A DNA stretch of 64,000 nucleotides from an uncultured Actinomycetota bacterium. Lineage in GTDB: Bacteria > Actinomycetota > Actinomycetes > Streptosporangiales > Streptosporangiaceae. Where the stretch lies: the NCBI GenBank assembly GCA_963725175.1, contig CAVRXH010000006.1, forward strand, positions 5,939,580 through 6,003,579. The letters run 5' to 3'. A model generated the notes under the pieces. It saw only the letters and a list, made by a program, of their open reading frames with translations. It made no database searches and had not been told where the DNA came from. This document shows, piece after piece, positions 2,698 through 63,844 of the stretch. Numbering within the stretch: position 1 is the first letter of the stretch; each line of letters starts with the position of its first letter. The position numbers were made by a program, and so were the translations under genes.

Positions 2698-3576
2698 ATG
2701 AATAGTGATTCATCCGTGGTGCCGGCTCAGCGACCTGCGGCATCCGCGAGCGGGACCCTGGACGTGCGCGGGGTGACCGTGCGGTTCGGCGGCCTGACCG
2801 CGCTGGACGACGTGTCGCTCACCGCGGCCGGCCAGCAGGTGACCGGGATCATCGGCCCGAACGGCGCCGGCAAGACCACCCTGCTCAACGTCCTGTGCGG
2901 CTTTATCCGGCCGCAGTCGGGCCAGCTCAGCTTTGACGGGCAGCGACTGGCCCGGCTGCGGCCGCACAAGCTGGCCCGGCTGGGCATCGCCAGGACACTC
3001 CAGGGCGTCGGGCTGTTCGCCGGGCTGACGGTGGCCGAGAACGTGATGGCCGGCGCGGCCGGCGGCGACCGCGCGGGCGCGTGGCGGGCCGGCTTCTGGC
3101 CGGCCGCGCTCGGCCTGCCGGTGTCAGACGGCCGCCAGCGCGCGCTCCGCGCGCTGGCGATGGAGACGCTGGACCGGCTCGGCGTGGCGGACCTGGCCGA
3201 CGAGCTGCCCGGCGCGCTGCCGCACGGGCCGCGCAAGCGGGTCGCGCTGGCCAGGGCGATGGCGGCCCGGCCGAGGCTGCTGCTGCTCGACGAGCCGGCC
3301 AGCGGCCTGAGCGAGAGCGAGCTGCCTGAGCTGGGCGAGCTGATCACCGAGCTGGCCCGGCAGGCCACGGTCGTGGTGATCGAGCACCGGATGGACCTGA
3401 TGATGTCGGTCTGCGAGCAGATCTTCGTGCTCGACTTCGGCAAGGTGATCGCCTCGGGAACCCCGGCCCAGGTTCAGGCCGACCCGGCCGTCACCGCGGC
3501 CTACCTCGGCACCGAGCCGGAAGCGGGTCCGGTCGCCGAGACCGGGGACTCCGGCGAGGAGGCCGGCGATGAGTGA
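2698..3576 (+). CDS. livG: Branched-chain amino acid-type ABC transporter ATP-binding protein (LivG family)
   Basis: Walker A GPNGAGKTT, LSGG-type signature and a LivG-like C-terminal extension. The start is uncertain: the ORF opens at GTG 2671 and there is an ATG at 2698. Confidence 0.85.
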   Translation: MNSDSSVVPAQRPAASASGTLDVRGVTVRFGGLTALDDVSLTAAGQQVTGIIGPNGAGKTTLLNVLCGFIRPQSGQLSFDGQRLARLRPHKLARLGIARTLQGVGLFAGLTVAENVMAGAAGGDRAGAWRAGFWPAALGLPVSDGRQRALRALAMETLDRLGVADLADELPGALPHGPRKRVALARAMAARPRLLLLDEPASGLSESELPELGELITELARQATVVVIEHRMDLMMSVCEQIFVLDFGKVIASGTPAQVQADPAVTAAYLGTEPEAGPVAETGDSGEEAGDE

Positions 3577-4324
3577 GCCAGCCGCCGCCCCGGCGGCAAG
3601 CGCGGCGAGCGCCGCCCCGGTGCTGGAGGTCACCGACGTGGTGGCCGGCTACAACGCCGCGCCGGTGCTGGACGGGGTGAGCATCGCGGCCCCGGCCGGC
3701 ACGATCACCGCCGTGCTCGGCGCCAATGGCGCGGGCAAGACGACGCTGCTGCGGACCATCTCGGGCTTCCTGCGGCCGCGGGCTGGCCAGGTGCTGCTGG
3801 ACGGCGCCAGCCTCACCAGGCGCGCCCCGGAGGAGATCGCCAGGGCCGGCCTCGCGCACGTGCCCGAGGGCCAGGGCGTGATCACCGAGCTGACCGTCGA
3901 GGAGAACCTGCGGGTCGGGCTGCTGCTGCGGGACCGGGGCCAGCGCGCGGCGGCGCTGGCCGCCAGCTACGACCAGTTCCCGGTGCTGGGCAAGCGGCGG
4001 CGGGCGCTGGCCGGCTCGCTGTCCGGCGGCGAGCGGCAGATCCTGGTGATCGCCAGGGCGCTGCTCACCGCGCCGCGGGTGCTGCTGCTCGACGAGCCCT
4101 CCCTTGGCCTGGCACCCCGGATCGTCGCGCAGGTGATGGACCTGGTCAGGGGGCTACGCGACGACACGGGACTGACCGTGCTGCTGGTCGAGCAGAACGC
4201 GCGCGGCGCGCTGGCCATCGCCGATCAGGGCCTGGTGCTCAGCCTCGGCAAGGTCGTGGCCAGGGCGGGCGCCGCCGAGCTGGCCGCCGACGAGGGCCTG
4301 CGCCGGCACTACCTCGGCTTCTAG
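3569..4324 (+). CDS. livF: Branched-chain amino acid-type ABC transporter ATP-binding protein (LivF family)
   Basis: GANGAGKTTLL, LSGGERQ and LLLDEPS motifs. The ATG overlaps the livG stop by 8 nt. Confidence 0.88.
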   Translation: MSEPAAAPAASAASAAPVLEVTDVVAGYNAAPVLDGVSIAAPAGTITAVLGANGAGKTTLLRTISGFLRPRAGQVLLDGASLTRRAPEEIARAGLAHVPEGQGVITELTVEENLRVGLLLRDRGQRAAALAASYDQFPVLGKRRRALAGSLSGGERQILVIARALLTAPRVLLLDEPSLGLAPRIVAQVMDLVRGLRDDTGLTVLLVEQNARGALAIADQGLVLSLGKVVARAGAAELAADEGLRRHYLGF

Positions 4325-6263: not shown

Positions 6264-7603
6264 AGAGAACACGCACAGTTACCCTTGCGCCGGTGGCTGG
6301 GCTGGCCGCCGTCGCGATGCTGCTCGCCGCGTGCGGTTCCAGCGGGTCCAGCGGCAGCGGCAAGTCAGGCTCGGGGTCGGCGCTGACCGCGTCGGCGCCT
6401 GGCGTCACCGCCACCACCATCACGATTGGCAGTCACCAGCCGCTCACCGGCATCGCCGCGCCCGGCTACGACGAGATCGCGCCCGCCGCCAACGCCTATT
6501 TCCAGTACCTGAACGCGCACGGCGGCATCTACGGCAGGAAGATCGACTACAAGTACCTCAACGACCAGTACAACCCGTCGCTGACCTCGACCGTCGTCCG
6601 CCAGCTCGTGCTCAAGGACAACGTGTTCGCGATCTTCAACGGGCTGGGCACGCCCACGCACCTGGCGGTCGCGCCGTTCCTGAACAGCGAGAAGGTGCCC
6701 GACGTGTTCGTCGCCTCGGGCTGCGAGTGCTGGAACGCGCCGTCCAAGTGGCCCTACACCTTCGGCTGGCAGCTTGACTACGTGCGCGAGGGCAAGATCC
6801 TCGGCCAGTACGTCGCGCAGCACTTCAAGGGGAAGAAGATCGGCTTCTTCTACCAGGACGACGAGTTCGGCCAGGACGGGGTCAAGGGCCTGGAGGACGA
6901 GATCCCCGCGAAGCAGGTCGTCGCCAAGGAGGCCTACGACCCGACCAACACCACGGTCGGCCCGCTGGTCGCCAAGCTCAAGGCGGCCGGGGCGCAGGTC
7001 GTCGTCTCGTTCTCGGTGCCGGCCTTCACCGCGCTGCTCAAGCTGAACGCGCTCGGGCTGAGCTACAACCCGCAGCTCGTGGTCAGCAACGTGGGCGCGG
7101 ACGCGATCACCCTGGCGGGCCTGCTTCAGGCGTTCGCCGCCAAGGCGCACCAGAAGGTGAACGGCAACGAGCTGACCCAGGGCATCATCACCGACGGCTA
7201 CCTGCCGACCCTGGGGGACACCAGCAACGGCTGGATCTCGCTGTTCAAGCAGATCCACGACAAGTACATCCCGAAGCTGCCGTTCGACGGGAACGTGCTC
7301 TACGGGATGTCGTCGGCCTACACCTTCGCCGAGGCGATGTTCAAGGCCGGGCGTAACCCGACCAGGCAGGATCTGGTCAACGCGATCAACGGCGGGCTGG
7401 CGCAGGGCGTGGCCATCGCGCCGTACGCCTACTCGGCGACCAACCACAACGGAGTCACCGGCGCCTACATCGGCATCATCAAGGACGGCGTGCTGGTGCA
7501 GACCGGCCCGGTGCTGGTCACCGACACCAGCCCGACCGGTGCCATCACGCCGGACACGACGCCGCAGCCGGCGGCGCCCGCGAACGGCATCCCGCCGCAC
7601 TGA
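6260..7603 (+). CDS. ABC transporter substrate-binding lipoprotein (LivK / Peripla_BP_6-like)
   Basis: AAGGAGAAAGG SD. Lipobox LLAAC followed by a Gly/Ser linker. 447-aa periplasmic-binding-protein-like sequence closing the liv operon. Confidence 0.85.
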   Translation: MKRTRTVTLAPVAGLAAVAMLLAACGSSGSSGSGKSGSGSALTASAPGVTATTITIGSHQPLTGIAAPGYDEIAPAANAYFQYLNAHGGIYGRKIDYKYLNDQYNPSLTSTVVRQLVLKDNVFAIFNGLGTPTHLAVAPFLNSEKVPDVFVASGCECWNAPSKWPYTFGWQLDYVREGKILGQYVAQHFKGKKIGFFYQDDEFGQDGVKGLEDEIPAKQVVAKEAYDPTNTTVGPLVAKLKAAGAQVVVSFSVPAFTALLKLNALGLSYNPQLVVSNVGADAITLAGLLQAFAAKAHQKVNGNELTQGIITDGYLPTLGDTSNGWISLFKQIHDKYIPKLPFDGNVLYGMSSAYTFAEAMFKAGRNPTRQDLVNAINGGLAQGVAIAPYAYSATNHNGVTGAYIGIIKDGVLVQTGPVLVTDTSPTGAITPDTTPQPAAPANGIPPH

Positions 7604-7609
7604 CCGCAC

Positions 7610-7650
7610 GGCCCGGTGCCCGCCGGTGATCATGAAGCGGGCACCGGGCC
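7610..7650 (+). terminator. Hairpin after the liv operon
   Basis: Perfect 14-bp stem GGCCCGGTGCCCGC / GCGGGCACCGGGCC with a 13-nt loop, starting 7 nt after the SBP stop. There is no T-run. Confidence 0.55.
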
Positions 7651-7681
7651 GGCGGGCGCCGGGGCGGACTGCCACACTGGT

Positions 7682-7710
7682 GCTGACCAGCGGAGTTCAC
7701 GCTGGTCAGC
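7682..7710. promoter_or_regulatory. Perfect 10-bp inverted repeat upstream of tetR (candidate operator)
   Basis: GCTGACCAGC-ggagttcac-GCTGGTCAGC, ending 35 nt upstream of the TetR start codon. Confidence 0.4.
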
Positions 7711-7744
7711 GTCCCGCCGCGACAGATCAGCAGAGGTAGCCAGC

Positions 7745-8358
7745 GTGAGTATCGCACCCAGCCGCAAGCCGGCCGCGCGGGACCGGCCGCCGGCCGAGCG
7801 ACTGCTGAGCGCGGCCGAGCGGCTGTTCGGCGAGCGCAGCTACCGGCGCACCACCGTGGCCGACATCTGCGCGCAGGCCGGCATCGCGACGGGCAGCTTC
7901 TACGCGCACTTCGGCTCCAAGTCCGACATCTTCGCGGCGGTCATCCGGCAGATCAACGCCGACCTGCGGGCGACTATGTCGGCGGCGCTGGACACCGCGG
8001 CGGGCAATCAGCGGGCCAGGGAGCGCGCCTCGTTCCGTGCCTATTTCGACCTCATGTCGGAGCGGCCGTGGATCTTCCGCATCGTCCGCGAGGCGGAGTT
8101 CCTGGCGCCGGGGGAGTTCCGCGCCTACTACGAGCGGCTGGCCAGGGGATACGCGCGGGGTGTCCGGGCGGCGCAGCTCGCCGGCGAGGTCGACGCGCGC
8201 TATGACCCGGAGGTCATCGCCTACGTCTACACCGGGCTCGGCAACTTCATCGGGATGCGCTGGGCCGAGTGGACCGCGGGCGGCCGGGTCCCCGACGACA
8301 TCTTCGAGGACGTGATGAGCGTCCTGGCCCGCGGCCTCCCCCCGCCGGCCCCGCCTAG
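7745..8358 (+). CDS. TetR/AcrR family transcriptional regulator; stop reached only after a frame correction
   Basis: GTG 7745 follows an AGAGG SD. HTH region ERSYRRTTVADICAQAGIATGSFYAHFGSKSDIF. As written, the frame runs on to 9022, through a palindromic repeat and antisense to bioY. A 1-nt shift in the C-run at 8338-8343 gives TAG 8356-8358 and a typical 204-aa TetR. Confidence 0.8.
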
Positions 8359-8390
8359 CTCGCCGGCCTGCCGCCGCGCCATCCCGGCTT

Positions 8391-8436
8391 ATCGGGTAGC
8401 GCTTTGGGCGTATGCGGCCCCAAAGCGCTACCCGAT
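8391..8436. repeat. REP-like palindromic element, copy 1
   Basis: Perfect 18-bp stem ATCGGGTAGCGCTTTGGG / CCCAAAGCGCTACCCGAT with a 10-nt loop. It lies between the convergent tetR and bioY genes. A second, inverted copy is at 63404-63459. Confidence 0.8.
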
Positions 8437-8446
8437 CATGAAGTAC

Positions 8447-9040
8447 TCAGCTGCTGGGGCGGCGGCCGGCGAGGGACCAGGCGGCGGGCAGCAGGCCGGC
8501 CGCGATGGCGGCCTTGATCGCGTCGCCGATCAGGAACGGGGTCAGCCCGTCGGCGATCGCGGCGGACACGCTCAGGTGCAGCGACACCGCCAGCCAGGTC
8601 ACGCCGACCGCGTAGATGACCACCTCGCCGGCCAGCATCACCGGCACCGAGCGGAGCACGGAGCGGTCGCCGCCCCGGCCGGCCAGGTAGCCGCACAGCG
8701 CCGCCGCCAGGAAGAACCCGACGATGTACCCGAACGACGCGCCCACGTAGCCGCTGGCGTGCCCGGCGAACCACGGCACGCCGGCCACGCCGGCCACCGC
8801 GTACAGGGCCATCGCGGCGGCGGCCCGGCGCCAGCCGAGCGCGGTGCCGGCGAGCAGCACGCCGAGGGTCTGCCCGGTGACCGGGACTGGCGTGAACGAC
8901 AGGTGGATCTGGAGCTGGGCGAGTACGCCGACGAACCCGGCCGCGCCGACCACGAGCAGGATGTCCCTGACCAGGGTGCCGGGCAGCAGGTCGGCCAGCA
9001 CCAGCGGGCGCGGGCGTCGTAGCGTATCTGAGTGCGACAT
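8447..9040 (-). CDS. bioY: Biotin transporter BioY
   Basis: ATG 9040 follows a GGAGG SD. 198-aa membrane protein with the BioY pattern (..FTPVPVTGQTLGVLLAG.., ..GYIVGF.., ..FLIGDAIKA..). Confidence 0.85.
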   Translation of the reverse strand: MSHSDTLRRPRPLVLADLLPGTLVRDILLVVGAAGFVGVLAQLQIHLSFTPVPVTGQTLGVLLAGTALGWRRAAAAMALYAVAGVAGVPWFAGHASGYVGASFGYIVGFFLAAALCGYLAGRGGDRSVLRSVPVMLAGEVVIYAVGVTWLAVSLHLSVSAAIADGLTPFLIGDAIKAAIAAGLLPAAWSLAGRRPSS

Positions 9041-9073
9041 CGGGGCGGAGCCTCCTACTGAAGGGCGCGTGAC

Positions 9074-9586
9074 GTGGAGCCGGACGTGCTGGGACGCTAC
9101 CACGAGGGTGCTTTGCCGACATTCCGGGCATCGAGCGCACCGGCTGCCGACGCCTCCGGGCCACCCCTGCCCGACCTGCTGAGCTACCTGCGCGGCGACT
9201 GGCAGGTGGCCCGCCGGCTCACCGATCACCGGTCCGGCACGGCGGGGGAGTTCACCGGCACCGCGTCGTTCCGCGCGCTGGGCAGGGCCGGGCTGGCGTA
9301 CCGGGAGGAGGGGGAGCTGCGGTTCGGGGGGCACCTGGGACCGGCCAGCCGAGACCTGATCTACCTCGCCGCTGCGGACGGCGCGCTAGATGTCCGGTTC
9401 GGCGACGGGCGCGCGTTCTACCGGCTGGAGGCGAGCGGCGGCCGGTGGACCGCCGGGCACCCGTGCGGCCTGGATCACTACCAGGTCACCGGCGAGCTGC
9501 TCGGCGCCGGCCGGTACGCCGAGCACTGGCAGGTCACCGGGCCCGCCAAGAATTACGAGATCGACTCCACGCTGGTCCGCCGGTGA
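9074..9586 (+). CDS. Hypothetical protein (possibly DUF6314-like), first gene of an operon divergent from bioY
   Basis: 170-aa ORF with coding-like GC3. Its stop overlaps the next start (GTGA). The family name is recalled from memory only, and the start is uncertain. Confidence 0.55.
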   Translation: MEPDVLGRYHEGALPTFRASSAPAADASGPPLPDLLSYLRGDWQVARRLTDHRSGTAGEFTGTASFRALGRAGLAYREEGELRFGGHLGPASRDLIYLAAADGALDVRFGDGRAFYRLEASGGRWTAGHPCGLDHYQVTGELLGAGRYAEHWQVTGPAKNYEIDSTLVRR

Positions 9587-11319
9587 CCGGCGCGGACGGC
9601 TACTCCGGCACCATTCCCCGGCTGCTCGCCCAGGCCGCCGGCCGGGACGCCGCAGGCACCTGGCTGCGCGCCGACTCGGGGACGCTGACCTTCGGCGGCG
9701 CGGCCGCCGCGACCGCGCTGACCGCGCAGGTGCTGACCGAGGCCGGGGTGCGCAAGGGCGACCTGGTGATGATGACCGCGCGGAACATCCCGCCCTACCT
9801 CATCTGCTGGCTGGCCCTGACCTCGCTCGGCGCGGTCACCGTCGCGGTGAACCCGCGCAGCCAGCCCGCCGAGCTGGCCGGGCTGATTTCCCAGGTCAGC
9901 CCGCGCGCCCTGATCACCGACGACACCCTCGCCGAGCTGACCGGCGTGGCCCTGGCCGGGGTCGCCGCACCCGGAGCGCCCGCACCCAGCTCCGCCGCAG
10001 CCGGCACCGCCGAGCCAGGAGTCGCTGGACCAGGGAGCTTCGCGTCCTTGGCCGCCGCGGCGCCGGCCGGGCTGGCCGTGCTCGACGTCGCCGGTCTGGT
10101 GCCGGCCGGCTGGGCCGACCCGGCCGCGATGGCCGCCGCCGCGCGCCGGGCCGGGCCGCTGCCCGACGTGGCCAGGCCGGACGACCCGGCCACCCTGATC
10201 CCGACCTCGGGTACCACCGGCCGGTCCAAGCTGGTCATCCAGACCCACCGGGCGTACGCGATGGCCGGCGAGGGTTTCCCGTACTGGATGGAGCTGACCG
10301 CCGCCGACCGGATGATGACCTCGCTGCCGCTGTTCCACGTCAACGCGCCCGCCTACTCCGTGCTCGGCTCGCTGGCCTGCGGCGCGGGGCTGGTGCTGCT
10401 GGAGCGGTTCTCGGCCAGCGGGTTCCTGGACGCGGCGCGGCGGCACGGGGCGACCGAGTTCAACGCCATCGGGGCGATGCTGGAGATGCTGATGCGCCAG
10501 CCCGAGCGGCCCGATGACGCCGGCACCCCGCTGCGGCTGTGCTACACAGGACCCGCGCCCGAGCGCGACCGGCACCTGGAGATGGAACGGCGGCTCGGCC
10601 TGCGGATCGTCGTCGGCTACGCGATGTCGGAGTCCCCGTACGGGCTGATCTGGGCGCGCGGCACCCGCCCGTACGGCACCCTCGGCTCGGTGCGCCAGCA
10701 CCCGGTGCTCGGCACCGTCAACGCCGCGCGGGTCGTCGCGCCGGACGGCACCGACCTGCGCCCCGGCGACAGCGGAGAGCTGCTGCTGCGCAACCCGGCC
10801 GTGACGCCGGGCTACTTCGGCATGCCGGAGGAGACCGCGCGGGTGATCACCGGCGGCTGGCTGCACACCGGCGACCTGGTCACGGTGAACGCCGACGGCA
10901 CCTACACGTTCGTGTCCCGGATCAAGGAAGTGATCCGCCGCCGTGGCGAGAACCTGTCGCCGCTCGAAGTCGAGGACGTCCTCGCCGCGCACCCGGCGGT
11001 GCTGGAGTGCGCCGTCACCGGGGTGCCCTCCGATCTCACCGAGGAAGAGGTCAAGGCCTTCGTCGTGACGGCCGGGGACCAGCGCGCCGACTTCGCCGAG
11101 CTGCATGCCTTCGCCGCCGCCCGGCTCGCCGCGTTCAAGGTGCCCCGGTACTGGCAGCAGGTCAGCGAGCTGCCCAGGACCCCGACGGCGCGAGTCGCCA
11201 AGCACCTGCTGCCGGCCGGGCACCCGCCCGGCGAGTACGACGCCCGCCCGCCGGACCAGGCCTCCGCCCACCCGGCCCAGCCCGCAGAGCCGGCCCAGCC
11301 CGCACAGGAGACCCCGTGA
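9583..11319 (+). CDS. AMP-dependent acyl-CoA synthetase/ligase
   Basis: AMP-binding motif TSGTTGRSK, plus ..GYAMSE.. and ..WLHTGD... GTG 9583 overlaps the previous stop. There is an Ala/Pro-rich insertion before the P-loop and a PAQPAEPAQPAQ tail. Confidence 0.85.
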   Translation: MTGADGYSGTIPRLLAQAAGRDAAGTWLRADSGTLTFGGAAAATALTAQVLTEAGVRKGDLVMMTARNIPPYLICWLALTSLGAVTVAVNPRSQPAELAGLISQVSPRALITDDTLAELTGVALAGVAAPGAPAPSSAAAGTAEPGVAGPGSFASLAAAAPAGLAVLDVAGLVPAGWADPAAMAAAARRAGPLPDVARPDDPATLIPTSGTTGRSKLVIQTHRAYAMAGEGFPYWMELTAADRMMTSLPLFHVNAPAYSVLGSLACGAGLVLLERFSASGFLDAARRHGATEFNAIGAMLEMLMRQPERPDDAGTPLRLCYTGPAPERDRHLEMERRLGLRIVVGYAMSESPYGLIWARGTRPYGTLGSVRQHPVLGTVNAARVVAPDGTDLRPGDSGELLLRNPAVTPGYFGMPEETARVITGGWLHTGDLVTVNADGTYTFVSRIKEVIRRRGENLSPLEVEDVLAAHPAVLECAVTGVPSDLTEEEVKAFVVTAGDQRADFAELHAFAAARLAAFKVPRYWQQVSELPRTPTARVAKHLLPAGHPPGEYDARPPDQASAHPAQPAEPAQPAQETP

Positions 11320-14070: not shown

Positions 14071-14110
14071 TGGGCTGGTCCATGCCCGCAGGCCCGAGCC
14101 GTCTCTACTA

Positions 14111-14145
14111 TGCAAAGAAGTGTTTGCAAAGACTTGTTTGGAAAG
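14111..14145. promoter_or_regulatory. AT-rich overlapping palindromes upstream of the wHTH regulator (candidate operator/promoter)
   Basis: Sequence TGCAAAgaagtgTTTGCAAAgacttgTTTGGAAAG. It contains 6-bp arms TGCAAA/TTTGCA and the palindromic 8-mer TTTGCAAA, and ends 15 nt before ATG 14160. Confidence 0.45.
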
Positions 14146-17809: not shown

Positions 17810-17925
17810 CGGTGCCTGCCTGGCTTCACGGTCAGTGGTCAGTAGGTAGGTGCCTGGGTGCGTCGACGTCCGCCTGCCTGTCAGCGATCGGCGGCGGGCG
17901 GGCCTAGCAGCCCGCCCGCCGCCGA

Positions 17926-18921
17926 TCACGCCTCGGGCTTGTCAGCCTTCTGGCTGCCGCCCTTAGCCGTCCGGCTGGCCGCCTTCTTGGTCCCGGCCTG
18001 GCCAGCCGTGGTGTCCGTCTTCCCGGCCGTGCCCGTCTTCCCGGCCGTGCCCGTCTTCGCGGCGGCAGTGCCGCTCTTCCGGGCAGCGGTGGCGGACTTC
18101 GCGGCGATGGTGCCGGCTTTTCCGGCAGTGGTGCCGGTCTTCGCGGCGGTGGCGCTGGCCTTCGCGGAGCTCGTCGTCGGGCTCTTCTTCGGCGTGGTCT
18201 TCCGCGCCCGAGCCCGCGGCGTCGCGGTCTCGGTGGCGTCGCCCTGGCCGCCGTCCGTCCCGTCCGCGTCGCTCGCGGCGTTTCCGGCCGCAGCGGTGTC
18301 AGCGGCAGCGGTGTCAGCGGCAGCAGGGCTGGCGTGAGCATCGGCCGGGCCGGGCTTTGCCTGGCCGGTCGTCATGCTGCCGTGCGTGGCGCTCTCCTGC
18401 GCGGTGCCGGGGTCGTGCGCGACGGGCGTGCTGCTGGCTGTCCCCGAGCCGGGAAGCGCGGCGCGGACGGACTGGGCTGCCTGGACGGCCTGGCCAATCC
18501 GGTTCACGCCCTGGGCCAGCAGCGGCCCGGCGACCTGGGCGCCGCGCGCCAGGATCGGGCCAGCCGCCTCGGCGACCTGCCCAGCGATCCTGGTCCCGGC
18601 CGCGAACGCCTGCTCGGCGACGTCCTGTGCGCCGCTCAGCAGCTTCTCCCTGCTGGGCAGCTTCGGCATAGGCGGCGTCTGGATCTTGATGTCGGGCAGC
18701 TTCATCTCGGGCAGCTTGAGGTCCGGAAGCTGCGGCCGGAATGACTCGGCGGCGGCCGTCAGGCTCTTGACGACCTCGGCCACCGTCTCCTGGCCCTTGC
18801 GGAGCTGCTCGGGGGCGTTCTTCGCCTGCTGCTGTGCCTTGCGGGCCTGCTCCTGCGCCTTACGGGCGGCTCCGATGAGCTGATCTTGCAGCTCCTGCCC
18901 GACGGCCTTGGTGTCGATCAT
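17926..18921 (-). CDS. Coiled-coil protein with a Lys/Ala/Thr-rich repetitive C-terminal tail (HbhA / histone-H1-tail-like)
   Basis: 331 aa. N-terminal Gln/Lys/Ala-rich helical region, central Ala/Gly-rich region, and a C-terminal tail of AAKTGT/AGKTGT repeats (nt about 17985-18180). High GC3. Confidence 0.7.
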   Translation of the reverse strand: MIDTKAVGQELQDQLIGAARKAQEQARKAQQQAKNAPEQLRKGQETVAEVVKSLTAAAESFRPQLPDLKLPEMKLPDIKIQTPPMPKLPSREKLLSGAQDVAEQAFAAGTRIAGQVAEAAGPILARGAQVAGPLLAQGVNRIGQAVQAAQSVRAALPGSGTASSTPVAHDPGTAQESATHGSMTTGQAKPGPADAHASPAAADTAAADTAAAGNAASDADGTDGGQGDATETATPRARARKTTPKKSPTTSSAKASATAAKTGTTAGKAGTIAAKSATAARKSGTAAAKTGTAGKTGTAGKTDTTAGQAGTKKAASRTAKGGSQKADKPEA

Positions 18922-19017
18922 CGCGTGTGTCCTCCTCGCGTCTGCTGCAAACTATATCAAGCAAATCGCGTGCTATGCCAAGCGCCCCAGCTAGCGACGC
19001 CGGGGCGAGGCAGTTCC

Positions 19018-19125
19018 GCCAGGTCGGCCACGCCGGCACCGCTGCCAGGTCGGCTGCACCCGCATCTCCCTAGGTCGCCCACGACGGCATCGCCGCCACC
19101 TCGGCCACGCCGGCATCGGCATCCC
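19018..19125. repeat. Degenerate ~25-27-bp tandem repeats (about 4 units) upstream of the repeat-tail protein gene
   Basis: Units begin ccaggtcggccacgccggca / ccaggtcggctgcacccgca / ctaggtcgcccacgacggca / cctcggccacgccggcatcg. Confidence 0.6.
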
Positions 19126-19344
19126 GGCAACAGTGGATGCGGGTTTGCTGCGGTCGCCACGGCAGCAAAACCCGGCTCGCTGCCGCTGGGTCCGGCGTGC
19201 CCCCATCTGCTTCGCGCCCGCTGGGGGCGGTGCTACGCCCGCGCCGGCTCGCTGCCGCTGGGCCGCCGTCGGCTGCCGGCCACGCCGTGCTTGCTGCCTG
19301 CTGAGGTCGGCCGCCCGGCGGGCGAAACCCGCCGGGAACTAGCA

Positions 19345-19398
19345 ACAGTGAACCCGCTTTTACTGTCGCTGAAACGACAGTAAAAGCGGGTTCACTGT
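19345..19398. repeat. Perfect 24-bp inverted repeat (54-nt hairpin) with nested palindromes
   Basis: ACAGTGAACCCGCTTTTACTGTCG-ctgaaa-CGACAGTAAAAGCGGGTTCACTGT. Each arm is bounded by ACAGT..ACTGT. The element is more AT-rich than its surroundings. Confidence 0.9.
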
Positions 19399-19432
19399 CG
19401 TAGGCGTCCGCAGTTCAGCTGATAACAGCAAG

Positions 19433-19563
19433 AGGCAGGGCAGGGCAGGGCAGGGCAGGGCAGGGCAGGGCAGGGCAGGGCAGGGCAGGGCAGGGCAGGG
19501 CAGGGCAGGGCAGGGCAGGGCAGGGGCAGGGGCAGGGCAGGGGCAGGGGCAGGGGCGGGGCGG
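19433..19563. repeat. Pentanucleotide microsatellite (CAGGG)x17 grading into (CAGGGG)n; G-quadruplex-type tract on the + strand
   Basis: 17 perfect CAGGG units span 19436-19520. They are followed by CAGGGG x2, CAGGG, CAGGGG x3 and CGGGGCGG. Confidence 0.95.
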
Positions 19564-19716
19564 TGACTGGGGGAATGAAGATTCGGTTTGCGAAGGATTT
19601 GGCGGGGTGGAGGGCGGAATTTTGGGGGCCGGGGAAAGGCGGGGAGGTGGAGAGACGAGGGGATAGCCAGGGGTGGCGCGTAATGCGCCGGAAGTCGCGC
19701 CGAGGGGGGCGCGGGG

Positions 19717-20001
19717 CTAGCCGTGCAGGGGGTGCGGGCTAGCGGGCTTGCTCGCGACCACGTAGGCGGCGAAGAGAATCGCTCCGGCAATCAGCGTGAC
19801 CCTGGTCCACCTGGGGGCGCCTTTCCAGCTGAAGCCGGCGACCAGCATGGCGGGGACGGTGAGGATCGGAACGACGACTAGGCCGATGATGGCCGCGACC
19901 ACGGCGAATGTTCCGGTGCGCTTGCTGTTCAGCGCACCTTTCGGAATGAGTGCCACGCACTGAGCGTAACTCCGGGTAAACAATTCGTACAGGAATGGCA
20001 A
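19717..20001 (-). CDS. Small membrane protein (2 predicted TM segments)
   Basis: High GC3 from about codon 16 onward (..FAVVAAIIGLVVVPILTVPAMLVAGF..LIAGAILFAAYVV..). The first 15 codons are AT-rich, so the real start may be GTG 19956. Confidence 0.5.
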   Translation of the reverse strand: MPFLYELFTRSYAQCVALIPKGALNSKRTGTFAVVAAIIGLVVVPILTVPAMLVAGFSWKGAPRWTRVTLIAGAILFAAYVVASKPASPHPLHG

Positions 20002-20241
20002 CTGCGAGAATGATCACAGCGACCCTGGAGAGGCCCAAAATCCGTGGTCAGCCGTCCGGACGCGGCGAAAACGCAGGGGAAACGGCGCTGACGTGGCCGC
20101 CGGGTGCTGACCGGAATGCCAGTGGTCTCGCGCCAGAACGTCTATTTGTGCCAATCAGAGAACATCGCGTATCAAGCTTCCCGCGAACCATTGTTCGCTA
20201 TCCGAATAGCAGCGTGCGACATGTGTTGCTAGCGTTGCGGC

Positions 20242-28605: not shown

Positions 28606-28974
28606 TCAGCCGCGGTCGTGGAGGGTCACCTGGTAGCCGTCGGGGTCGGCGAACGTGAAAGTGCGGCCGAACGGCCCGTCGGCGGGCGCTGAGATGATCG
28701 TCGTGCCGGCGGCGGCGAGGGCGTCGTGGATGTCCTGCGCGTCGGGGGCGTGCAGCCACAGCGCCATTCCCTGGCCCGGCTGGGCGATCGCGTCCAGGTC
28801 GGTGCCCGCGATGACGTCGCGGACGGCGAGCGCGATCGGCCTGGTTTCGAACACGACGGCGTGCGGCGGTCCCGCCTCGGAGCGCTTCAGCCCCAGGTAC
28901 CGCTCGTAGAAAGCGGCGGAGCGCTCCAGGTCGCGCACCTGCAGTGAGATGAAGTCGGGTCCGGTGACGGCCAC
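28606..28974 (-). CDS. VOC/glyoxalase-family protein
   Basis: GTG 28974 follows a GAGGAGG SD. Motifs ..FISLQVRDLERSAAFYERYLGL.. and ..FADPDGYQVTLH... Confidence 0.8.
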   Translation of the reverse strand: MAVTGPDFISLQVRDLERSAAFYERYLGLKRSEAGPPHAVVFETRPIALAVRDVIAGTDLDAIAQPGQGMALWLHAPDAQDIHDALAAAGTTIISAPADGPFGRTFTFADPDGYQVTLHDRG

Positions 28975-28995
28975 GATCGTTACCTCCTCATGGGA

Positions 28996-29039
28996 TGTCA
29001 GTCTTCTGACACACCTCACTGTATGTCAGACTACTGACA
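28996..29039. promoter_or_regulatory. Two 16-bp perfect palindromes in the VOC/MarR divergent intergenic region (candidate MarR operators)
   Basis: TGTCAGtcttCTGACA (28996-29011) and TGTCAGactaCTGACA (29024-29039). The second abuts the MarR ATG. Confidence 0.65.
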
Positions 29040-29500
29040 TGAGTCAAGGCGAGCCGGGAATCGAGCTGGGCACATCGCTGGGGTACATGCTGAAGGCGGC
29101 CGCGAGCGCCCTGCACGCTGCCCTGGAGGCCGTGCTGAGGCCGCTGGGCATGACGATCACCCACTACGCCTGCCTGGAGCTGCTTGCCCAGCGGCCGGGC
29201 CTGTCGAACTCCGAGCTTGCCCGCGGCGCCTTCGTCACCCGGCAGTCGATGAGCGTGCTCCTGCAGGCCCTCGAACGCCAGGGACTCGTTATCCGCGCGG
29301 CACGGGCACCCGTCGGCAGGGCCCTGCCCACCGAGCTGACCGCCCGCGGGCGCCGCCAGCTCACGATGGCCAGCGCCGCGGTCCGCCGCGTCGAGCAGGA
29401 CATGCTGGCCAGCCTGGACGCCAGCGAGCAAGATCAGATGCGGCTCCTGCTCACCGCGTGCATCACCGCACTGACCGAACCGCCCGCACCGGCGACGTAG
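29039..29500 (+). CDS. MarR-family transcriptional regulator
   Basis: ..LGYMLKAAASALHAALEAVLRPLGMTITHYACLELLAQRPGLSNSELARGAFVTRQSMSVLLQALERQGLV... Confidence 0.85.
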   Translation: MSQGEPGIELGTSLGYMLKAAASALHAALEAVLRPLGMTITHYACLELLAQRPGLSNSELARGAFVTRQSMSVLLQALERQGLVIRAARAPVGRALPTELTARGRRQLTMASAAVRRVEQDMLASLDASEQDQMRLLLTACITALTEPPAPAT

Positions 29501-48059: not shown

Positions 48060-48456
48060 TACCGGCCCGCTCGTCGCTTACCTGAATCACAACGATCCAG
48101 ATCACGCTCGCTGCGCCGAACTTCTGGACTCGCGCACCGATGATCTTCTCGTGACCCCCTACGTCATCACCGAGGCCTGTTACCTCGTCGGGAAGTACGT
48201 CGGACCGGAGGCCGAGATCAACCTGGTTGAGGCGCTCGCCGCGGGGGACCTGAGCCAGATTGATGTCCCGGCAGGAGATCTGATCCGCATGGCCGAACTC
48301 ATGCGGCAGTACATCGGCTTCCCGCTGGGTGTTGCCGATGCGTCGGTCATCGCCACCGCCGAGCGCCTTCGGGCCACCGAGGTGGCCACACTGGACCGGC
48401 GGCACTTCCACGCGGTACGACCGGCCCACGTGACGGCGCTGAAGCTGCTTCCTTAA
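48040..48456 (+). CDS. vapC: PIN-domain ribonuclease toxin VapC
   Basis: MTMLIVDTGPLVAYLN..LLVTPYVITEACYLV..GVADASVIATAERL..VATLDRRHF carries the conserved acidic PIN residues. Confidence 0.85.
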   Translation: MTMLIVDTGPLVAYLNHNDPDHARCAELLDSRTDDLLVTPYVITEACYLVGKYVGPEAEINLVEALAAGDLSQIDVPAGDLIRMAELMRQYIGFPLGVADASVIATAERLRATEVATLDRRHFHAVRPAHVTALKLLP

Positions 48457-48533
48457 GGCTGTCGGGGCTGCCGTCCGATAGGAGAGTTGGCGGGGCGGGC
48501 AGGGAAATCGGGCAGACGGGACCGGCTGGTCCT

Positions 48534-49976
48534 GTGCAGACTGGCGGCGTGCTGCTGACGATCTCCACGACTCATGCTCCGGCGTCCGATCTCGGGTACC
48601 TGCTGCATAAGCACCCCGGCCGGGTTCAGGCGTTCCCGCAGTCGGTGGGCACCGCGCACGTCTTCTACCCGGCGGTCAGCGACGAGCGCTGCACGGTGGC
48701 GCTGCTGCTGGAGGTTGACCCGGTGGCGCTGGCGCGCGGCCGGGCGGGCCGGCGCGGCGAGGCGTTCCCGCTGGGGCAGTACGTCAGCGACCGGCCCTAT
48801 GTCGCGTCCAGCATGCTCGCGATGGCGCTCAAGGATGTCTTCCGCACGGCGCTGACCGGGCGCTGCGACGCCCGTCCGGAACTGGCCGCCGCGGCGATCC
48901 CGCTGGAGATCGGAATCCCGGCGGTGCCCAGCCGCGGCGATGCGGACCTGCCCCGGCGGCTGTTCGGGCCGCTGGGCTGGCAGGTCGCGGCGGCTCGCGG
49001 GCCGCTTGACCCGGAGATCCCGGACTGGGGCGACTCGCCGTACGCCGATGTCCGGCTCACCGGCGAGCTCCGGCTGGCCGATGCCCTGAACCACCTGTAC
49101 GTGCTGCTCCCGGTGCTGGACGACGCCAAGCACTACTGGGTCAGCGAGGACGAGATCGGCAAGCTGCTCCGCGCGGGCGAGGGCTGGCTGCCGTCGCACC
49201 CGGAGCAGGAACTGATCACCCGGCGGTACCTGTCGCACCAGCGGGACCTGGCCAGGTCGGCGCTGGCCCGGCTGGCGGAGGCCGACGACGCCGGGCCGGC
49301 CGAGTTCGACAACGCCCCGGACGGCGCGGTCGCGCTCGATGACCCGCGGCGGCCAGGCGAGCTGGCCGGGCAGCGGCGGGCGGCGGTGCTCGCCGCGGTG
49401 CTGGCGTCGGGGGCGCGCCGGGTCGGTGACCTGGGCTGCGGCGAGGGCCTGCTGGCGGCGGACCTGCTGGCCGCGCCGGGCATCGAGCAGGTAGTGGCCA
49501 CCGACGTGTCGGCGCGGGCGCTCCAGATCGCCGCGCGGCGGCTGGGCCTGGACCAGATGCCGGACCGGCAGCGGCAGCGCCTGGAGATCTTCCAGTCGGC
49601 GCTGACCTACCGCGACGACCGGCTGGCGGGCCTGGACGCCGCCGTCCTGATGGAGGTGATCGAGCACATCGACCCGCCGCGGCTGGACACGCTGGAACGG
49701 GTGGTTCTCGGCCACGCGGCCCCGGCCACGGTGATCATCACCACCCCGAACGCGGAGCACAACGTGCTGTTCGACGGCCTGCGAGCGGGCGGGCTGCGGC
49801 ACGCGGACCACCGGTTCGAGTGGACGCGCGAGCAGTTCAGGGCCTGGGCGAGCCGGGCGGCGGCCGCCTACGGGTACACGGCCGCGTTCGCCGGAATCGG
49901 CCCCGACGACCCGCGGGTCGGGCCGCCGACCCAGCTCGCCATCCTGACCAGGACCGGGGCGGAGGTGCCCGCATGA
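48534..49976 (+). CDS. hen1: 3'-terminal RNA ribose 2'-O-methyltransferase Hen1 (bacterial RNA repair)
   Basis: N-terminal Hen1 ligase-activating domain (..LLTISTTHAPASDLGYLLHKHPGRVQ..) and C-terminal methyltransferase (..VGDLGCGEGLL.., ..LMEVIEHIDPPRL.., ..HRFEWTREQF..). The start may be GTG 48549. Confidence 0.85.
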   Translation: MQTGGVLLTISTTHAPASDLGYLLHKHPGRVQAFPQSVGTAHVFYPAVSDERCTVALLLEVDPVALARGRAGRRGEAFPLGQYVSDRPYVASSMLAMALKDVFRTALTGRCDARPELAAAAIPLEIGIPAVPSRGDADLPRRLFGPLGWQVAAARGPLDPEIPDWGDSPYADVRLTGELRLADALNHLYVLLPVLDDAKHYWVSEDEIGKLLRAGEGWLPSHPEQELITRRYLSHQRDLARSALARLAEADDAGPAEFDNAPDGAVALDDPRRPGELAGQRRAAVLAAVLASGARRVGDLGCGEGLLAADLLAAPGIEQVVATDVSARALQIAARRLGLDQMPDRQRQRLEIFQSALTYRDDRLAGLDAAVLMEVIEHIDPPRLDTLERVVLGHAAPATVIITTPNAEHNVLFDGLRAGGLRHADHRFEWTREQFRAWASRAAAAYGYTAAFAGIGPDDPRVGPPTQLAILTRTGAEVPA

Positions 49977-52558
49977 GCGCGGAACTGGGTGTCCCCGAGC
50001 TGAGCCTGATCGTGCTGATCGGCGTCACGGGGTCGGGAAAATCGACGTTCGCCCGGACGCGCTTCCGGCCGACTGAGGTCATCTCCTCGGACTTCTGCCG
50101 CGGCCTGGTCGCCGACGACGAGAACGACCAGTCGGCGACGCCCGAGGCCTTCGAGCTGCTCTCCTACATCGTCGGCAAGCGCCTGGCGGGGGGCCGGCTG
50201 ACCGTGGTGGACGCGACCAGCGTCCAGCCGGGCGCCCGCAGGCCGCTGGTCGCCCTGGCCAGGGAGCACGACGTGCTGCCGGTCGCGATCGTGCTGGATG
50301 TCCCCGAGGGCACCTGCGCGGCCAGGAACGCGGCGCGGCCGGACCGGGACTACGGCAGCCAGGTGGTCCGCCGCCAGCACGACCAGCTCCGGCGCGGTCT
50401 CAGCGGGCTGCGCCGGGAGGGCTTCCGCGCGGTCCACGTGCTGCGCGGCACGGCCGAGATCGACGCGGCGAGCATCACCAGGACCCGGCTGTACAACGAC
50501 CTGCGTGCCGAGAACGGGCCGTTCGACGTCATCGGCGACGTGCACGGCTGCCGCGCCGAGCTGGAAGGGCTGCTGGCCGAGCTGGGCTACGAGATCACCA
50601 GGGACGGCCAGGGCCGTGCCACGGGCGCGCACCACGAGGGCCGCCGGGCGGTCTTCGTCGGGGACCTGGTGGACCGGGGCCCGGACACTCCCGGCGTGCT
50701 GCGGCTGGTGCTGGGGATGGTCTCCGCCCAGGACGCGTACTGCGTGATGGGCAATCACGAGAGCAAGCTGCTGCGGGCCCTGCGCGGCAGCAAGGTCCAG
50801 GTCAGTCACGGCCTCGCGCAGTCGCTGGCGCAACTGGAGTCGGAGCCGCAGGAGTTCAGGATCGAGGTTGAGCGGTTCCTCGACGGGCTGATCAGCCACT
50901 ACGTCTTTGACGGCGGGCGGCTGGTGGTGGCGCACGCGGGCCTGATCGAGCGGTACCAGGGCCGCGCGTCGGGACGGGTCCGGTCGTTCTGCCTGTACGG
51001 CGACACCACGGGGGAGACCGACGAGTACGGGCTGCCGGTCCGCTACCCGTGGGCCCGCGACTATCGCGGCGCGGCGATGGTGCTGTACGGGCACACGCCG
51101 GTGCCCGCGCCGGAATGGGTCAACAACACGCTCTGCCTGGACACCGGCTGCGTGTTCGGCGGCCGCCTCACGGCGCTGCGCTATCCCGAGCGGGCGATCG
51201 TCTCGGTGCCCGCCACCGCCGTGCACTACGAGCCGGCCAGGCCGTTCCCGGCCAGCCCGGAGGCGGGCGGCGAGACCGGGCCGGAGGCCGGCGGGGCGGT
51301 GGCGGGCCGCCGGGAGCCCGACGTGCTCGACATCACCGACGTCACCGGGACGCGGGTCATCGAGACGGCGTACCAGCCGCGCATCGGGGTGCGCGAGGAG
51401 AACGCGGCGGCGGCGCTTGAGGTGATGAGCAGGTTCGCGATCGATCCCCGCTGGCTGGTGTACCTGCCGCCGACCATGAGCCCGGTCGCCAGCTCGGCCG
51501 AGCCCGGCCTGCTGGAGCACCCGGCGCAGGCGTTCGACTACTTCAGGACCGCCGGCGTCGGCCAGGTCGTGTGCGAGGAAAAGCACATGGGCTCGCGGGC
51601 GGTCGCGCTGGTCTGCCGGACGCCGGGCGAGGCCAGCGCCAGGTTCGGCGTGCCGGACGGCCAGGCGGGAGCGGTGTGGACCCGCACCGGGCGGGCGTTC
51701 TTCCGCGACGAGCTGACCGGGCAGTTCACCGGCCGGCTGCGGGAGGCAGCCGAACGGGCCGGGCTGTTCGTCGAGCTGGACACCCCCTGGCTGCTGTTCG
51801 ACGCCGAGCTGATGCCGTGGAGCGCCAAGGCCGGCCCGCTGCTGCGCGACCAGTACGCGGCGATCGGCGCGGCGGCCCGTGCCGCGCTCCCGGCCGCCGT
51901 GGCGACCCTGGAGCAGGGGGCAGCGGCCGGGCTGGACCTGGGCGAGTTGCTCGGCCGCATGAAGGGGCGGGAGGCCCGCGCCGCCGCGTTCACGGCTGCC
52001 TACCGGCGGTACTGCTGGCCGGTTGCGGAACTAGCTGGCATCAGGTTCGCGCCGTTCCAGCTCCTGGCCAGCGCGGGGGCGGTGCACCAGGAGCGGCCGC
52101 ACGGCTGGCACCTGGCCCTGGCCGACCGGCTGGCCGGCGCCGACCCGGAGCTGATCGCGGTCACCCGGCGGACTGTCGTGGACGTCACGGACCCAGGCTC
52201 GGTCGCGGCGGGGTGCGAGTGGTGGGCCCGGCTGACCGGGGACGGTGGCGAGGGCATGGTGGTCAAGCCGGCCCGGAACCTGGCCAGGGACCGCAAGGGG
52301 CTGGTGCAGCCGGGCCTGAAGGTGCGCGGCCGGGAGTACCTGCGGCTGATCTACGGCCCCGACTACACCGAGCCGGCGAACCTGGAACGGCTGCGCACCC
52401 GGAGCCTGGGCCACAAGCGCTCGCTGGCGCTGCGCGAGTACGCGCTCGGCCTGGAGGCGCTGGACCGGCTAGCCAGGGGCGAGCCGCTGTGGCGAGTACA
52501 CCAGTGCGTCTTCGCCGTCCTGGCCCTCGAATCCGAGCCAGTCGACCCGCGCCTGTAG
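49973..52558 (+). CDS. pnkp: Polynucleotide kinase-phosphatase-ligase Pnkp (bacterial RNA repair)
   Basis: ATGA overlap with hen1. Kinase P-loop GVTGSGKST. Metallophosphatase motifs GDVHGC, GDLVDRGP and GNHE. A C-terminal ligase-like domain is present. 861 aa. Confidence 0.88.
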   Translation: MSAELGVPELSLIVLIGVTGSGKSTFARTRFRPTEVISSDFCRGLVADDENDQSATPEAFELLSYIVGKRLAGGRLTVVDATSVQPGARRPLVALAREHDVLPVAIVLDVPEGTCAARNAARPDRDYGSQVVRRQHDQLRRGLSGLRREGFRAVHVLRGTAEIDAASITRTRLYNDLRAENGPFDVIGDVHGCRAELEGLLAELGYEITRDGQGRATGAHHEGRRAVFVGDLVDRGPDTPGVLRLVLGMVSAQDAYCVMGNHESKLLRALRGSKVQVSHGLAQSLAQLESEPQEFRIEVERFLDGLISHYVFDGGRLVVAHAGLIERYQGRASGRVRSFCLYGDTTGETDEYGLPVRYPWARDYRGAAMVLYGHTPVPAPEWVNNTLCLDTGCVFGGRLTALRYPERAIVSVPATAVHYEPARPFPASPEAGGETGPEAGGAVAGRREPDVLDITDVTGTRVIETAYQPRIGVREENAAAALEVMSRFAIDPRWLVYLPPTMSPVASSAEPGLLEHPAQAFDYFRTAGVGQVVCEEKHMGSRAVALVCRTPGEASARFGVPDGQAGAVWTRTGRAFFRDELTGQFTGRLREAAERAGLFVELDTPWLLFDAELMPWSAKAGPLLRDQYAAIGAAARAALPAAVATLEQGAAAGLDLGELLGRMKGREARAAAFTAAYRRYCWPVAELAGIRFAPFQLLASAGAVHQERPHGWHLALADRLAGADPELIAVTRRTVVDVTDPGSVAAGCEWWARLTGDGGEGMVVKPARNLARDRKGLVQPGLKVRGREYLRLIYGPDYTEPANLERLRTRSLGHKRSLALREYALGLEALDRLARGEPLWRVHQCVFAVLALESEPVDPRL

Positions 52559-62755: not shown

Positions 62756-62760
62756 GACCC

Positions 62761-63318
62761 GTGTCCGATCCTCAGCCAGCAGGCGTCCCGGAGCCGGAGC
62801 CGCAGGACGGTGCCGGCACGCCGGACGGGTTCCAGCGGCTGTGGATGCCGCACCGGATGGCCTACATCAAGGGCGAGGGCAAGCCGGGGGAGTCGGGAGA
62901 ATGCCCGTTCTGCCGCATCCCCGGCCTGCCGGACGCCGACGGGCTGATCGTGGCCCGCGGCGTGCTGGTCTTCGCGATCCTGAACCTCTACCCGTATAAC
63001 AGCGGGCACCTGATGGTGCTGCCGTACCGGCACGTGGCGGACTACACGGACCTGGACGACAAGGAGACGGCGGAGCTCGCGGAGTTCACGAAGCGGGCGA
63101 TGACGGCACTGCGCGCGGCGTCGGGGGCGCAGGGCTTCAACCTCGGCATGAACATGGGCGCGGTCGCGGGCGCGGGGATCGCCGCTCACCTGCACCAGCA
63201 CGTGGTGCCGCGCTGGGGCGGCGACGCGAACTTCATGCCGGTTATCGGCCGCACCAAGGTGCTCCCTCAGTTGCTCGCCGACACGCGAGAGCTGCTCGCC
63301 GAAGCCTGGCCCCGCTAG
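62761..63318 (+). CDS. HIT-family protein (Ap4A-phosphorylase-like, as found downstream of thrS in mycobacteria)
   Basis: ..CPFCRI.. and the histidine-triad region ..GAGIAAHLHQHVVPRW... GTG 62761 lies 5 nt after the thrS stop. Confidence 0.8.
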   Translation: MSDPQPAGVPEPEPQDGAGTPDGFQRLWMPHRMAYIKGEGKPGESGECPFCRIPGLPDADGLIVARGVLVFAILNLYPYNSGHLMVLPYRHVADYTDLDDKETAELAEFTKRAMTALRAASGAQGFNLGMNMGAVAGAGIAAHLHQHVVPRWGGDANFMPVIGRTKVLPQLLADTRELLAEAWPR

Positions 63319-63403
63319 CGGGGCCAGCCGGCGGCCGGGGCCAGCCCGGCCCGGCCCGGCCGACGCAACCCGGCCCGACCTGGGCCGCGCCGATCGGGCC
63401 GCT

Positions 63404-63459
63404 TCATGATCGGGTAGCGCTTTGGGCCACATACGCCCCAAAATGCTCCCCGATCATGA
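63404..63459. repeat. REP-like palindromic element, copy 2 (inverted relative to copy 1)
   Basis: TCATGATCGGGTAGCGCTTTGGG-ccacatacg-CCCCAAAATGCTCCCCGATCATGA. One arm is identical to copy 1, the other has 3 mismatches, and the loop is roughly the reverse complement of the copy-1 loop. Confidence 0.8.
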
Positions 63460-63844
63460 GAGTCACCCGGTGGCGGCGCCCGCCCAGTCACACGCATCAC
63501 TCCAGCGCCGTCGCCGGGCGGGGCAGGCGTGATCTTCAGGATCACGGGTCAGCGGGGGCCTGCGAAGCGGACGGGTGCTGGCTGGGGTTAGGGCGGCTGG
63601 GGCTGGGGGTTTGTATTGCCCGGGGGGTAACCCCCGGACCCCCAGACCGGGGGGCGGAGCCCCCCCGGAGCCCCCTCTGCCGGCCGCTCGGGCCGGGCCG
63701 GCAGGGCCCGACCCTCGCGGACGGCATTGCTGTGGCTGGGGTTTCCGGGCGGGCGGGTGGGCGGGCGTGGCTCGACCCGGTCCGGGCGACGCGGCTCACC
63801 CCGCCCTCAGCCGGCCAGGCCGGCCCCGCCGGGCCGGGCCCATC

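Follow-up and report, generated by a model that had tools for sequence, protein, structure and literature searches.

A lineage-specific, low-copy palindrome between convergent genes of a Streptosporangiaceae bacterium as a candidate 3′-end hairpin

Introduction

In high-G+C Actinobacteria, intrinsic terminators with a U-tract are scarce, and both the ending of converging transcription and the protection of mRNA 3′ ends are debated. A palindrome that recurs between convergent genes in such a genome raises the question of whether it serves the transcripts on either side or is DNA without a role for its host. An earlier note on the window analysed here (the whole stretch of DNA, 64 kb with 72% G+C, to which the in-window copy counts below refer) described such a palindrome, present twice, as a REP-like element of a dispersed family. 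Here, we compare the two copies with each other and with the same spacers in related genomes, and weigh what the element may do.

Results

Two copies of the palindrome lie in convergent spacers

Copy 1 lies between tetR and bioY. Its core palindrome (8391–8436, no strand assigned) has perfect 18-nt arms at 8391–8408 and 8419–8436 (ATCGGGTAGCGCTTTGGG and CCCAAAGCGCTACCCGAT, inverted, 18 of 18 positions paired), separated by a 10-nt loop that reads CGTATGCGGC on the + strand; the coordinates, the perfect 18-bp stem and the location in the earlier note were all reproduced. The core is placed 32 nt past the ancestral tetR stop (8356–8358) and 10 nt short of the bioY stop codon (8447–8449). The two genes, tetR (+) and bioY (−), are convergent, syntenic relatives show the Pfam domains TetR_N and BioY at these places, and the gene order liv-ABC / tetR(+) / bioY(−) / DUF6314 is syntenic among relatives. 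The best matches of the window TetR and HIT proteins are from MAGs labelled Streptosporangiaceae bacterium. Together with its outer motifs copy 1 spans 8386–8443 (no strand), and over this span it aligns with the HIT-locus palindromes (alignment A1, below) and scores 68 bits with covariance model R1. The right outer motif, GATCATGAAG, occupies 8434–8443 and ends 3 nt from the bioY stop, and at the left outer end CTT is directly followed by ATC, corresponding to CTTCATGATC minus CATG. The RNA is predicted to fold at −36.3 kcal/mol in the bioY sense (z = −5.5) and at −38.3 kcal/mol in the tetR sense (z = −6.8).

At the 3′ end of tetR (8340–8358) the window has one base fewer than the closely related contig L007 in a C-rich run (ctccccccg-ccggcc versus ctccccccgcccggcc), and the conserved TAG (8356–8358) is therefore out of frame. 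The tetR ORF (7616–9022) runs on through the palindrome and antisense bioY to give 468 aa. This probable frameshift would be either real, making tetR a pseudogene, or a homopolymer sequencing error. The open frame of the element (…RVALW…PKRYPIMK) matters for annotation, since it lengthens spurious ORFs and masks the probable tetR frameshift; the spurious peptide KRYPIMK, which had been noticed before, was found in ORFs 7616–9022(+) and 63315–63545(−).

Copy 2 (63402–63462, no strand) lies between the HIT gene (+, stop 63316–63318) and an EF-G-like gene (−, stop 63843–63845, running off the window), which are also convergent; thrS (60695–62755) is upstream of HIT and distinct from the EF-G-like gene. 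The arms of copy 2 (63404–63426 and 63437–63459) are 23 nt long with 3 mismatches, the unit scores 84 bits with R1, and its RNA folds are predicted at −42.6 and −46.3 kcal/mol. It starts 84 nt past the HIT stop and ends ~380 nt short of the EF-G-like stop. As the earlier note had it, one arm (63409–63426) is identical to the copy 1 arm and the other (63437–63454) differs by 3 mismatches. The same source placed copy 2 in the opposite orientation. This holds for the loop, CCACATACGC, which is the reverse complement of the copy 1 loop; the flanks give no clear inversion of the whole element, and so its "orientation" is set by the loop alone.

The length of the HIT/EF-G-like spacer ranges between 9 and 524 bp in relatives, and the spacer contains other features. 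A GGGTTAGGGC(T/G)GCTGGGGCTGG-like motif is found once at window 63570–63610 and about 3 times in the related contig L029 (~3510–3610). Between two near-identical metagenome contigs, L025 carries a 255-bp segment with long inverted repeats (CCCCCGGACCCCCAGACCGGG…) at 10562–10825, exactly between the HIT and EF-G-like stops, which L024 lacks (10562–10570). A partial homolog of this segment is present at window ~63626–63760 and L029 ~3625–3760. The difference between L025 and L024 indicates that the spacer hosts a second, unrelated foldback-type element.

The palindrome is a repeat distinct from other 3′ hairpins of the window

The element is a unit of ~60 bp, written as (CTT)CATGATC-RGGKAGSRYTTTGGG(C), a 7–10 nt loop and the complement. 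Its G+C content is 45–60%, against 72% for the genome. Allowing up to 3 mismatches, the window contains 4 matches to the arm sequence, where dinucleotide shuffles predict 0.06, and GATCATGAAG occurs 3 times (7628, 8434 and, on the minus strand, 63402) against 0.04 expected. No third copy was found in the 64-kb window by nhmmer, blastn-short or the covariance model with filters off. Hairpins are common downstream of genes in the window, such as those at 237–274, 7609–7666 and 17886–17927. These other 3′ hairpins are G+C-rich (81% at 17886–17927) and unique in sequence, whereas the palindrome is A+T-richer and present at two loci.

Both window copies are found in convergent spacers, to which an approximate gene map assigns ~15% of intergenic bases (P ~0.02 for both copies), and all four instances now known, counting the two orthologs below, lie extragenically at 3′ ends in such spacers. 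The positional bias is statistically weak, because only two loci and four instances are known.

The third occurrence of GATCATGAAG, at 7628–7637 (+), is a solo motif in the loop of a GC-rich hairpin 3′ of the liv substrate-binding-protein gene, as had been reported. A 13-nt stretch here, GATCATGAAGCGG, recurs exactly in the flank of copy 2, and the GATCATGAAG motif there is conserved in L007. The rare motif GTGATCATGAAG, which is the outer 10 nt of the palindrome arm, is present in the liv hairpin loop of both the window and L007, and the motif TGATCATGA/GATCATGAAG is also found at the unoccupied bioY 3′ end of L007. The liv-loop motif may be a target site, a remnant of decayed copies, an independent signal or a coincidence. 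We considered the liv-loop GATCATGAAG as a TetR operator and rejected this, since the motif is absent from L008, a more distant syntenic relative.

Orthologous copies keep their arms complementary

Two JGI metagenome contigs carry the palindrome in the HIT/EF-G spacer. L026, in which HIT is ~98% identical, has CTCCATGATCGGGGAGCATTTTGGGC-CACATAC-GCCCAAAATGCTCCCCGATCATGAGAA with perfect 23-nt arms, and L029 has CTTCATGATCAGGGAGGATTTTGGGC-TTATATG-GCCCAAAATCCTCCCTGATCATGAGAA with perfect 24–26-nt arms. Alignment A1 combines these with copies 1 and 2 over 23 stem pairs. Pairing is 95.5%, and of the 23 pairs 5 differ in both arms and none has a one-sided change, a pattern drawn from only four related sequences and carrying no formal significance test. 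When the partner arm was slid by 1–3 columns as a register-shift control, pairing fell to 31–51%. Outside copy 2, which tolerates 3 mismatches, each arm substitution is matched by a change in the opposite arm. The hairpins of the instances range from −36 to −50 kcal/mol, with z = −5.5 to −10.3 relative to shuffled sequence. The compensatory changes in the relatives' orthologous copies support the idea that the palindrome has been maintained as a hairpin-forming sequence.

The perfect copies contain no G-U pairs, all of their pairs being Watson-Crick, and the symmetry of the arms may thus stem from DNA conversion within the palindrome and not from selection on RNA. The outer CATGATC, GG, AG, TTTGGG and parts of the loop are invariant over the four instances. 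Rather than a purely structural constraint, the low G+C, the invariant CATGATC and the related loops point to recognition of a specific sequence or to recent common descent.

Exchange between loci, loop inversion, gain and loss

Comparison of copy 2 with the other instances reveals two halves of different affinity. The 25 nt on the HIT side (CTTCATGATCGGGTAGCGCTTTGGG) equal copy 1, and the distal 25 nt (CCCAAAATGCTCCCCGATCATGAGA) equal the L026 ortholog. Judged by these matches, copy 2 is chimeric, part copy-1 type and part L026 type, which implies sequence exchange between two loci 55 kb apart. Both arms of L026, and of the more distant L029, have the G..AT state. Most simply, one arm of copy 2 would have acquired copy-1-type sequence (T..GC) from the other locus, through gene conversion or templated copying.

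At the HIT/EF-G locus, the L029 loop reads as the reverse complement of that in L026 and copy 2 (by eye, 7 of 9 positions identical when flipped against 2 of 9 when direct; alignment score 5 against 1–2), and this fits an inversion of the loop between the arms. We had considered that the copies are co-oriented with the nearest upstream gene, as a strand-specific RNA element would be; this was rejected because the L029 loop is inverted at the same locus.

Presence of the element is polymorphic among close relatives, both at bioY (the window versus L007 and L028) and at HIT (L029 versus L027). In L007 (TetR 97% identical) the spacer at bioY is of similar length and retains GTGATCATGAAGT and a ~75%-similar remnant of the bioY-side arm (CCCAGCGCCGCCCTACGTGATCATGAAG versus CCCAAAGCGCTACCCGATCATGAAG); the L007 tetR–bioY spacer contains no inverted partner and no structure beyond that of shuffles. 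In L028 (94%) the tetR and bioY stops abut and there is no palindrome at bioY. At HIT, L027 lacks a ~100-nt segment that holds the palindrome, with flanks ~95% identical to L029, and L024, L025 and L027 have other sequences or unrelated hairpins in the HIT/EF-G spacer. The element is dispensable, since close relatives have nothing or unrelated hairpins in these spacers. This presence/absence pattern is that of a duplicative element, which it supports.

Copy 1 as a clean recent insertion relative to L007 was rejected, since L007 has a diverged arm homolog and the spacer lengths are similar; reconstruction of an empty site from L007 needs extra indels. The indels that remove the palindrome are imprecise, and the candidate target duplication, (G)ATC, is itself palindromic and indistinguishable from a terminal inverted repeat.

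The element is confined to a narrow clade

We searched 185,579 species-representative genomes and the JGI metagenome collection with the pattern ATCGGGNAGCNNTTTGGGN{6,16}CCCAAA, which tolerates all arm variants then known, and found no true further copies; 20 of 20 matches were low-G+C chance matches without a second arm. Absence from the metagenome collection is weak evidence, since L026 matches the pattern and was missed, the collection being incomplete. The L029 arm (ATCAGGG) lies outside the pattern, which makes its non-recovery uninformative. A broader, family-wide degenerate pattern gave 0 matches in viral contigs, and blastn against plasmid and phage collections gave only noise (E ~0.4). 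Every open-frame translation of the element was compared with 5.8 billion protein clusters for read-through ORFs, with no match at E up to 10. Rfam, at gathering and relaxed thresholds, returned only tRNAs and sub-threshold matches to generic miRNA hairpins, and nhmmer and R1, the latter with filters off, found no diverged copies above the generic-hairpin level in the window and 9 related loci. Together, these searches say that the element is confined to a narrow clade, where it is probably low-copy. A dispersed family, as first proposed, is not what emerged from two known loci and collection scans without true further copies, and both a genome-wide family and a link to RAYT are unproven.

A classical terminator is unlikely and the scanned window ORFs include no transposase

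No U-tract follows the hairpin on either strand, and no terminator-like sites were found in 7400–9200 or 62700–64000. A bidirectional terminator of the classical intrinsic kind, one of the functions suggested earlier, is therefore unlikely. Purified mycobacterial RNAP does not terminate at hairpins without U-tracts (PMC3993855). Pfam scanning of 30 window ORFs found no transposase domain, including RAYT/IS200-like domains; among the same ORFs there was no autonomous IS with the same ends, and the plasmid and phage collections held nothing similar.

Other palindromes in the window and its relatives

Further palindromes were observed in the course of these comparisons. A perfect palindrome at window 19345–19398 has 24-nt arms (ACAGTGAACCCGCTTTTACTGTCG), a 6-nt spacer and ~48% G+C; unrelated in sequence to copies 1 and 2, it lies within a 1.3-kb non-coding gap (18951–20233). 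Directly downstream, at 19434–19554, is a G-rich tandem array of GGCAG (x23, 96% matches), which may form G-quadruplexes. L008 has a perfect 26+26-nt palindrome at 2736–2792 (TCATGGATGTCTGATTGGTATCGCTA|TAGCGATACCAATCAGACATCCATGA, 44% G+C), inside the 3′ end of a called 568-aa gene, which resembles copies 1 and 2 in being A+T-rich and bounded by TCATG…CATGA. A TTTGCAAAG-containing palindrome at window 14108–14145 and L008 17288–17341, conserved in position just ahead of an HTH_20 (ArsR-like) regulator gene or across its start, is probably the operator of this regulator. An A+T-rich inverted repeat at 28995–29040 (ATGTCAGTCTTCTGACACAC / GTATGTCAGACTACTGACAT), at the 5′ end of the glyoxalase-family gene 28606–29025(−), is a possible operator. 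The window also encodes, at 48264–52558, a Hen1 (Hen1_L + methyltransferase) and Pnkp (kinase-phosphatase-ligase) pair, a bacterial RNA repair operon.

Discussion

We propose, at a probability of about 0.5, that the element is a lineage-specific, low-copy REP/TRIT-like palindrome which provides a 3′-end hairpin for both converging transcripts, a function inferred from its position and the conservation of its structure. Located in a convergent spacer, the palindrome would be transcribed from both sides, and either transcript would fold into an 18–26 bp hairpin of −36 to −50 kcal/mol. Such a structure at the 3′ end could block 3′-to-5′ exonucleases and/or help to stop or mark the end of converging transcription; as there is no U-tract, termination would probably need Rho or another factor. 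The element would spread by copying between loci at the DNA level, double-sided changes would keep its arms complementary, its loop would flip between the arms, and the element would be gained or lost among very close relatives. These DNA-level behaviours, namely inter-locus copying, arm co-evolution, loop flip and gain or loss, are directly supported by the sequences compared. The putative role as an mRNA 3′-end hairpin or stabiliser is a reasonable deduction by analogy.

The main rival reading, at odds that we would put clearly below even, is that the palindrome is neutral or selfish DNA with no host role, which arose as a minimal MITE-like or foldback element or was left behind by hairpin-templated repair. 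It would then be copied into TGATCATGA-like sites, its symmetry would result from gene conversion within the palindrome, and convergent spacers would merely be harmless places to land. Presence and absence between near-identical relatives is expected of such DNA, and the hybrid copy 2 and the flipped loop are DNA-level events. The perfect Watson-Crick arms without G-U pairs and the dispensability of the element in close relatives somewhat favour this reading. The low G+C looks foreign, the TGATCATGA/GATCATGAAG motif stands at sites without the element, namely the liv hairpin loop and the L007 bioY 3′ end, and in L025, but not in L024, the HIT/EF-G spacer also carries the unrelated 255-bp insert with long inverted repeats. 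However, there is no unambiguous target-site duplication, the junction GATC/ATC itself being palindromic, and the indels that remove the palindrome are not precise excisions. Neither the 30 window ORFs contain an autonomous element or transposase nor do the plasmid and phage collections contain anything similar, and the large collections yielded no extra copies, unlike what an actively spreading element would leave.

Quite unlikely, in our estimate, is a protein-binding site that acts as duplex or cruciform, at which a dimeric protein would recognise, be it as a regulator, as a nucleoid protein or as a site-specific nuclease or recombinase, the invariant CATGATC ends and the TTTGGG/CCCAAA top of the stem. 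The invariant blocks of the four instances and the recurrence of GATCATGAAG outside the palindrome would suit such recognition, as would the factor, binding a dsRNA motif, that the authors of the TRIT study proposed (PMC3152330). Yet arms of 18–26 bp are far longer than usual operators, the copies are at gene 3′ ends and not at promoters, and no gene for a candidate protein is linked. The five double-sided changes keep the pairing and not the sequence, as base-pairing predicts and a fixed protein recognition code does not. Chance likeness of two independent terminator hairpins, or an assembly artefact, is effectively refuted: although hairpins abound downstream of window genes, the loci share 25 nt exactly, the four arm matches compare with 0.06 expected, and two independent JGI metagenome assemblies contain the same element.

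More speculatively, and we regard this as doubtful, the palindrome and the TGATCATGA/GATCATGAAG motif could form an undescribed 3′-end system of a Streptosporangiaceae lineage. This would be either a TRIT-like, factor-dependent bidirectional terminator or RNA-processing signal, or a transposase-independent, loop-flipping palindrome that propagates at the motif by hairpin-templated copying or gene conversion. For the 3′-end hairpin that we favour, the compensatory evolution of a convergent-gene palindrome, combined with its turnover among near-identical strains, offers a small and tractable test case outside Mycobacterium. Its importance is modest, since the evidence covers two loci only.

Comparison with known systems

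The palindrome is best placed by comparison with other hairpin repeats. REPs, at 20–40 nt, are shorter and imperfect palindromes that carry a conserved GT(A/G)G on the 5′ side, occur in tens to hundreds of copies and are linked to a RAYT gene of the Y1 (IS200/IS605-like) kind, which REPs usually flank. The element resembles the REP/REPIN and RAYT systems of Enterobacteria, Pseudomonas and Stenotrophomonas (SMAG) in being extragenic, at 3′ ends or in convergent spacers, and strain-variable, and in producing a hairpin RNA able to act as stabiliser or terminator. It differs in that its palindromes are long (46–60 nt) and perfect, apart from the 3 mismatches of copy 2, and in that the 30 window ORFs scanned include no RAYT. 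GTAG is confined to the copy-1-type arm, inside the stem; the corresponding bases are GGAG in L026, in L029 and in the distal arm of copy 2. A combined function as terminator and stabiliser has been described for REPs, whose presence between convergent genes correlates with higher expression of both (bioRxiv 10.64898/2026.03.23.713779).

MITEs and Correia-type elements share terminal inverted repeats, presence/absence polymorphism and an intergenic location with the palindrome, which at only ~60 bp consists of two arms and a loop, shows no clear target-site duplication and has no parent IS with matching ends that we could find. The hairpin-only ("I-shaped") putative terminators of high-G+C Actinobacteria are likewise stable, lack a U-tail and follow stop codons, whereas the palindrome is A+T-richer than the ordinary 3′ hairpins of the window and recurs at two loci.

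TRIT (Tuberculosis Rho-independent terminator motif) comprises 147 palindromic, mostly bidirectional copies at M. tuberculosis gene termini (Gardner et al. 2011, PMC3152330). Most TRIT copies fall within the coding sequence, at about −8 from the stop codon, and the authors describe the motif as restricted to Mycobacterium and propose a factor that binds its conserved double-stranded RNA motif (PMC3152330). In a comparison made by description, both are actinobacterial, sequence-conserved palindromic hairpins of narrow lineage which lie at gene termini, are usable on both strands and lack a classical U-tract. The present element is found at 2 loci against 147 copies, and it starts 3–84 nt past stops: 3 nt (motif) or 10 nt (arm) from bioY, and 84 nt (window) or 23 nt (L026) from HIT.

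By analogy, the palindrome would work like the enterobacterial REP and the mycobacterial TRIT while being homologous to neither, with TRIT set apart by description. Although not demonstrably a REP or a MITE, it is no new kind of element but a small and young relative of the REP-like hairpin repeats, in low copy number.
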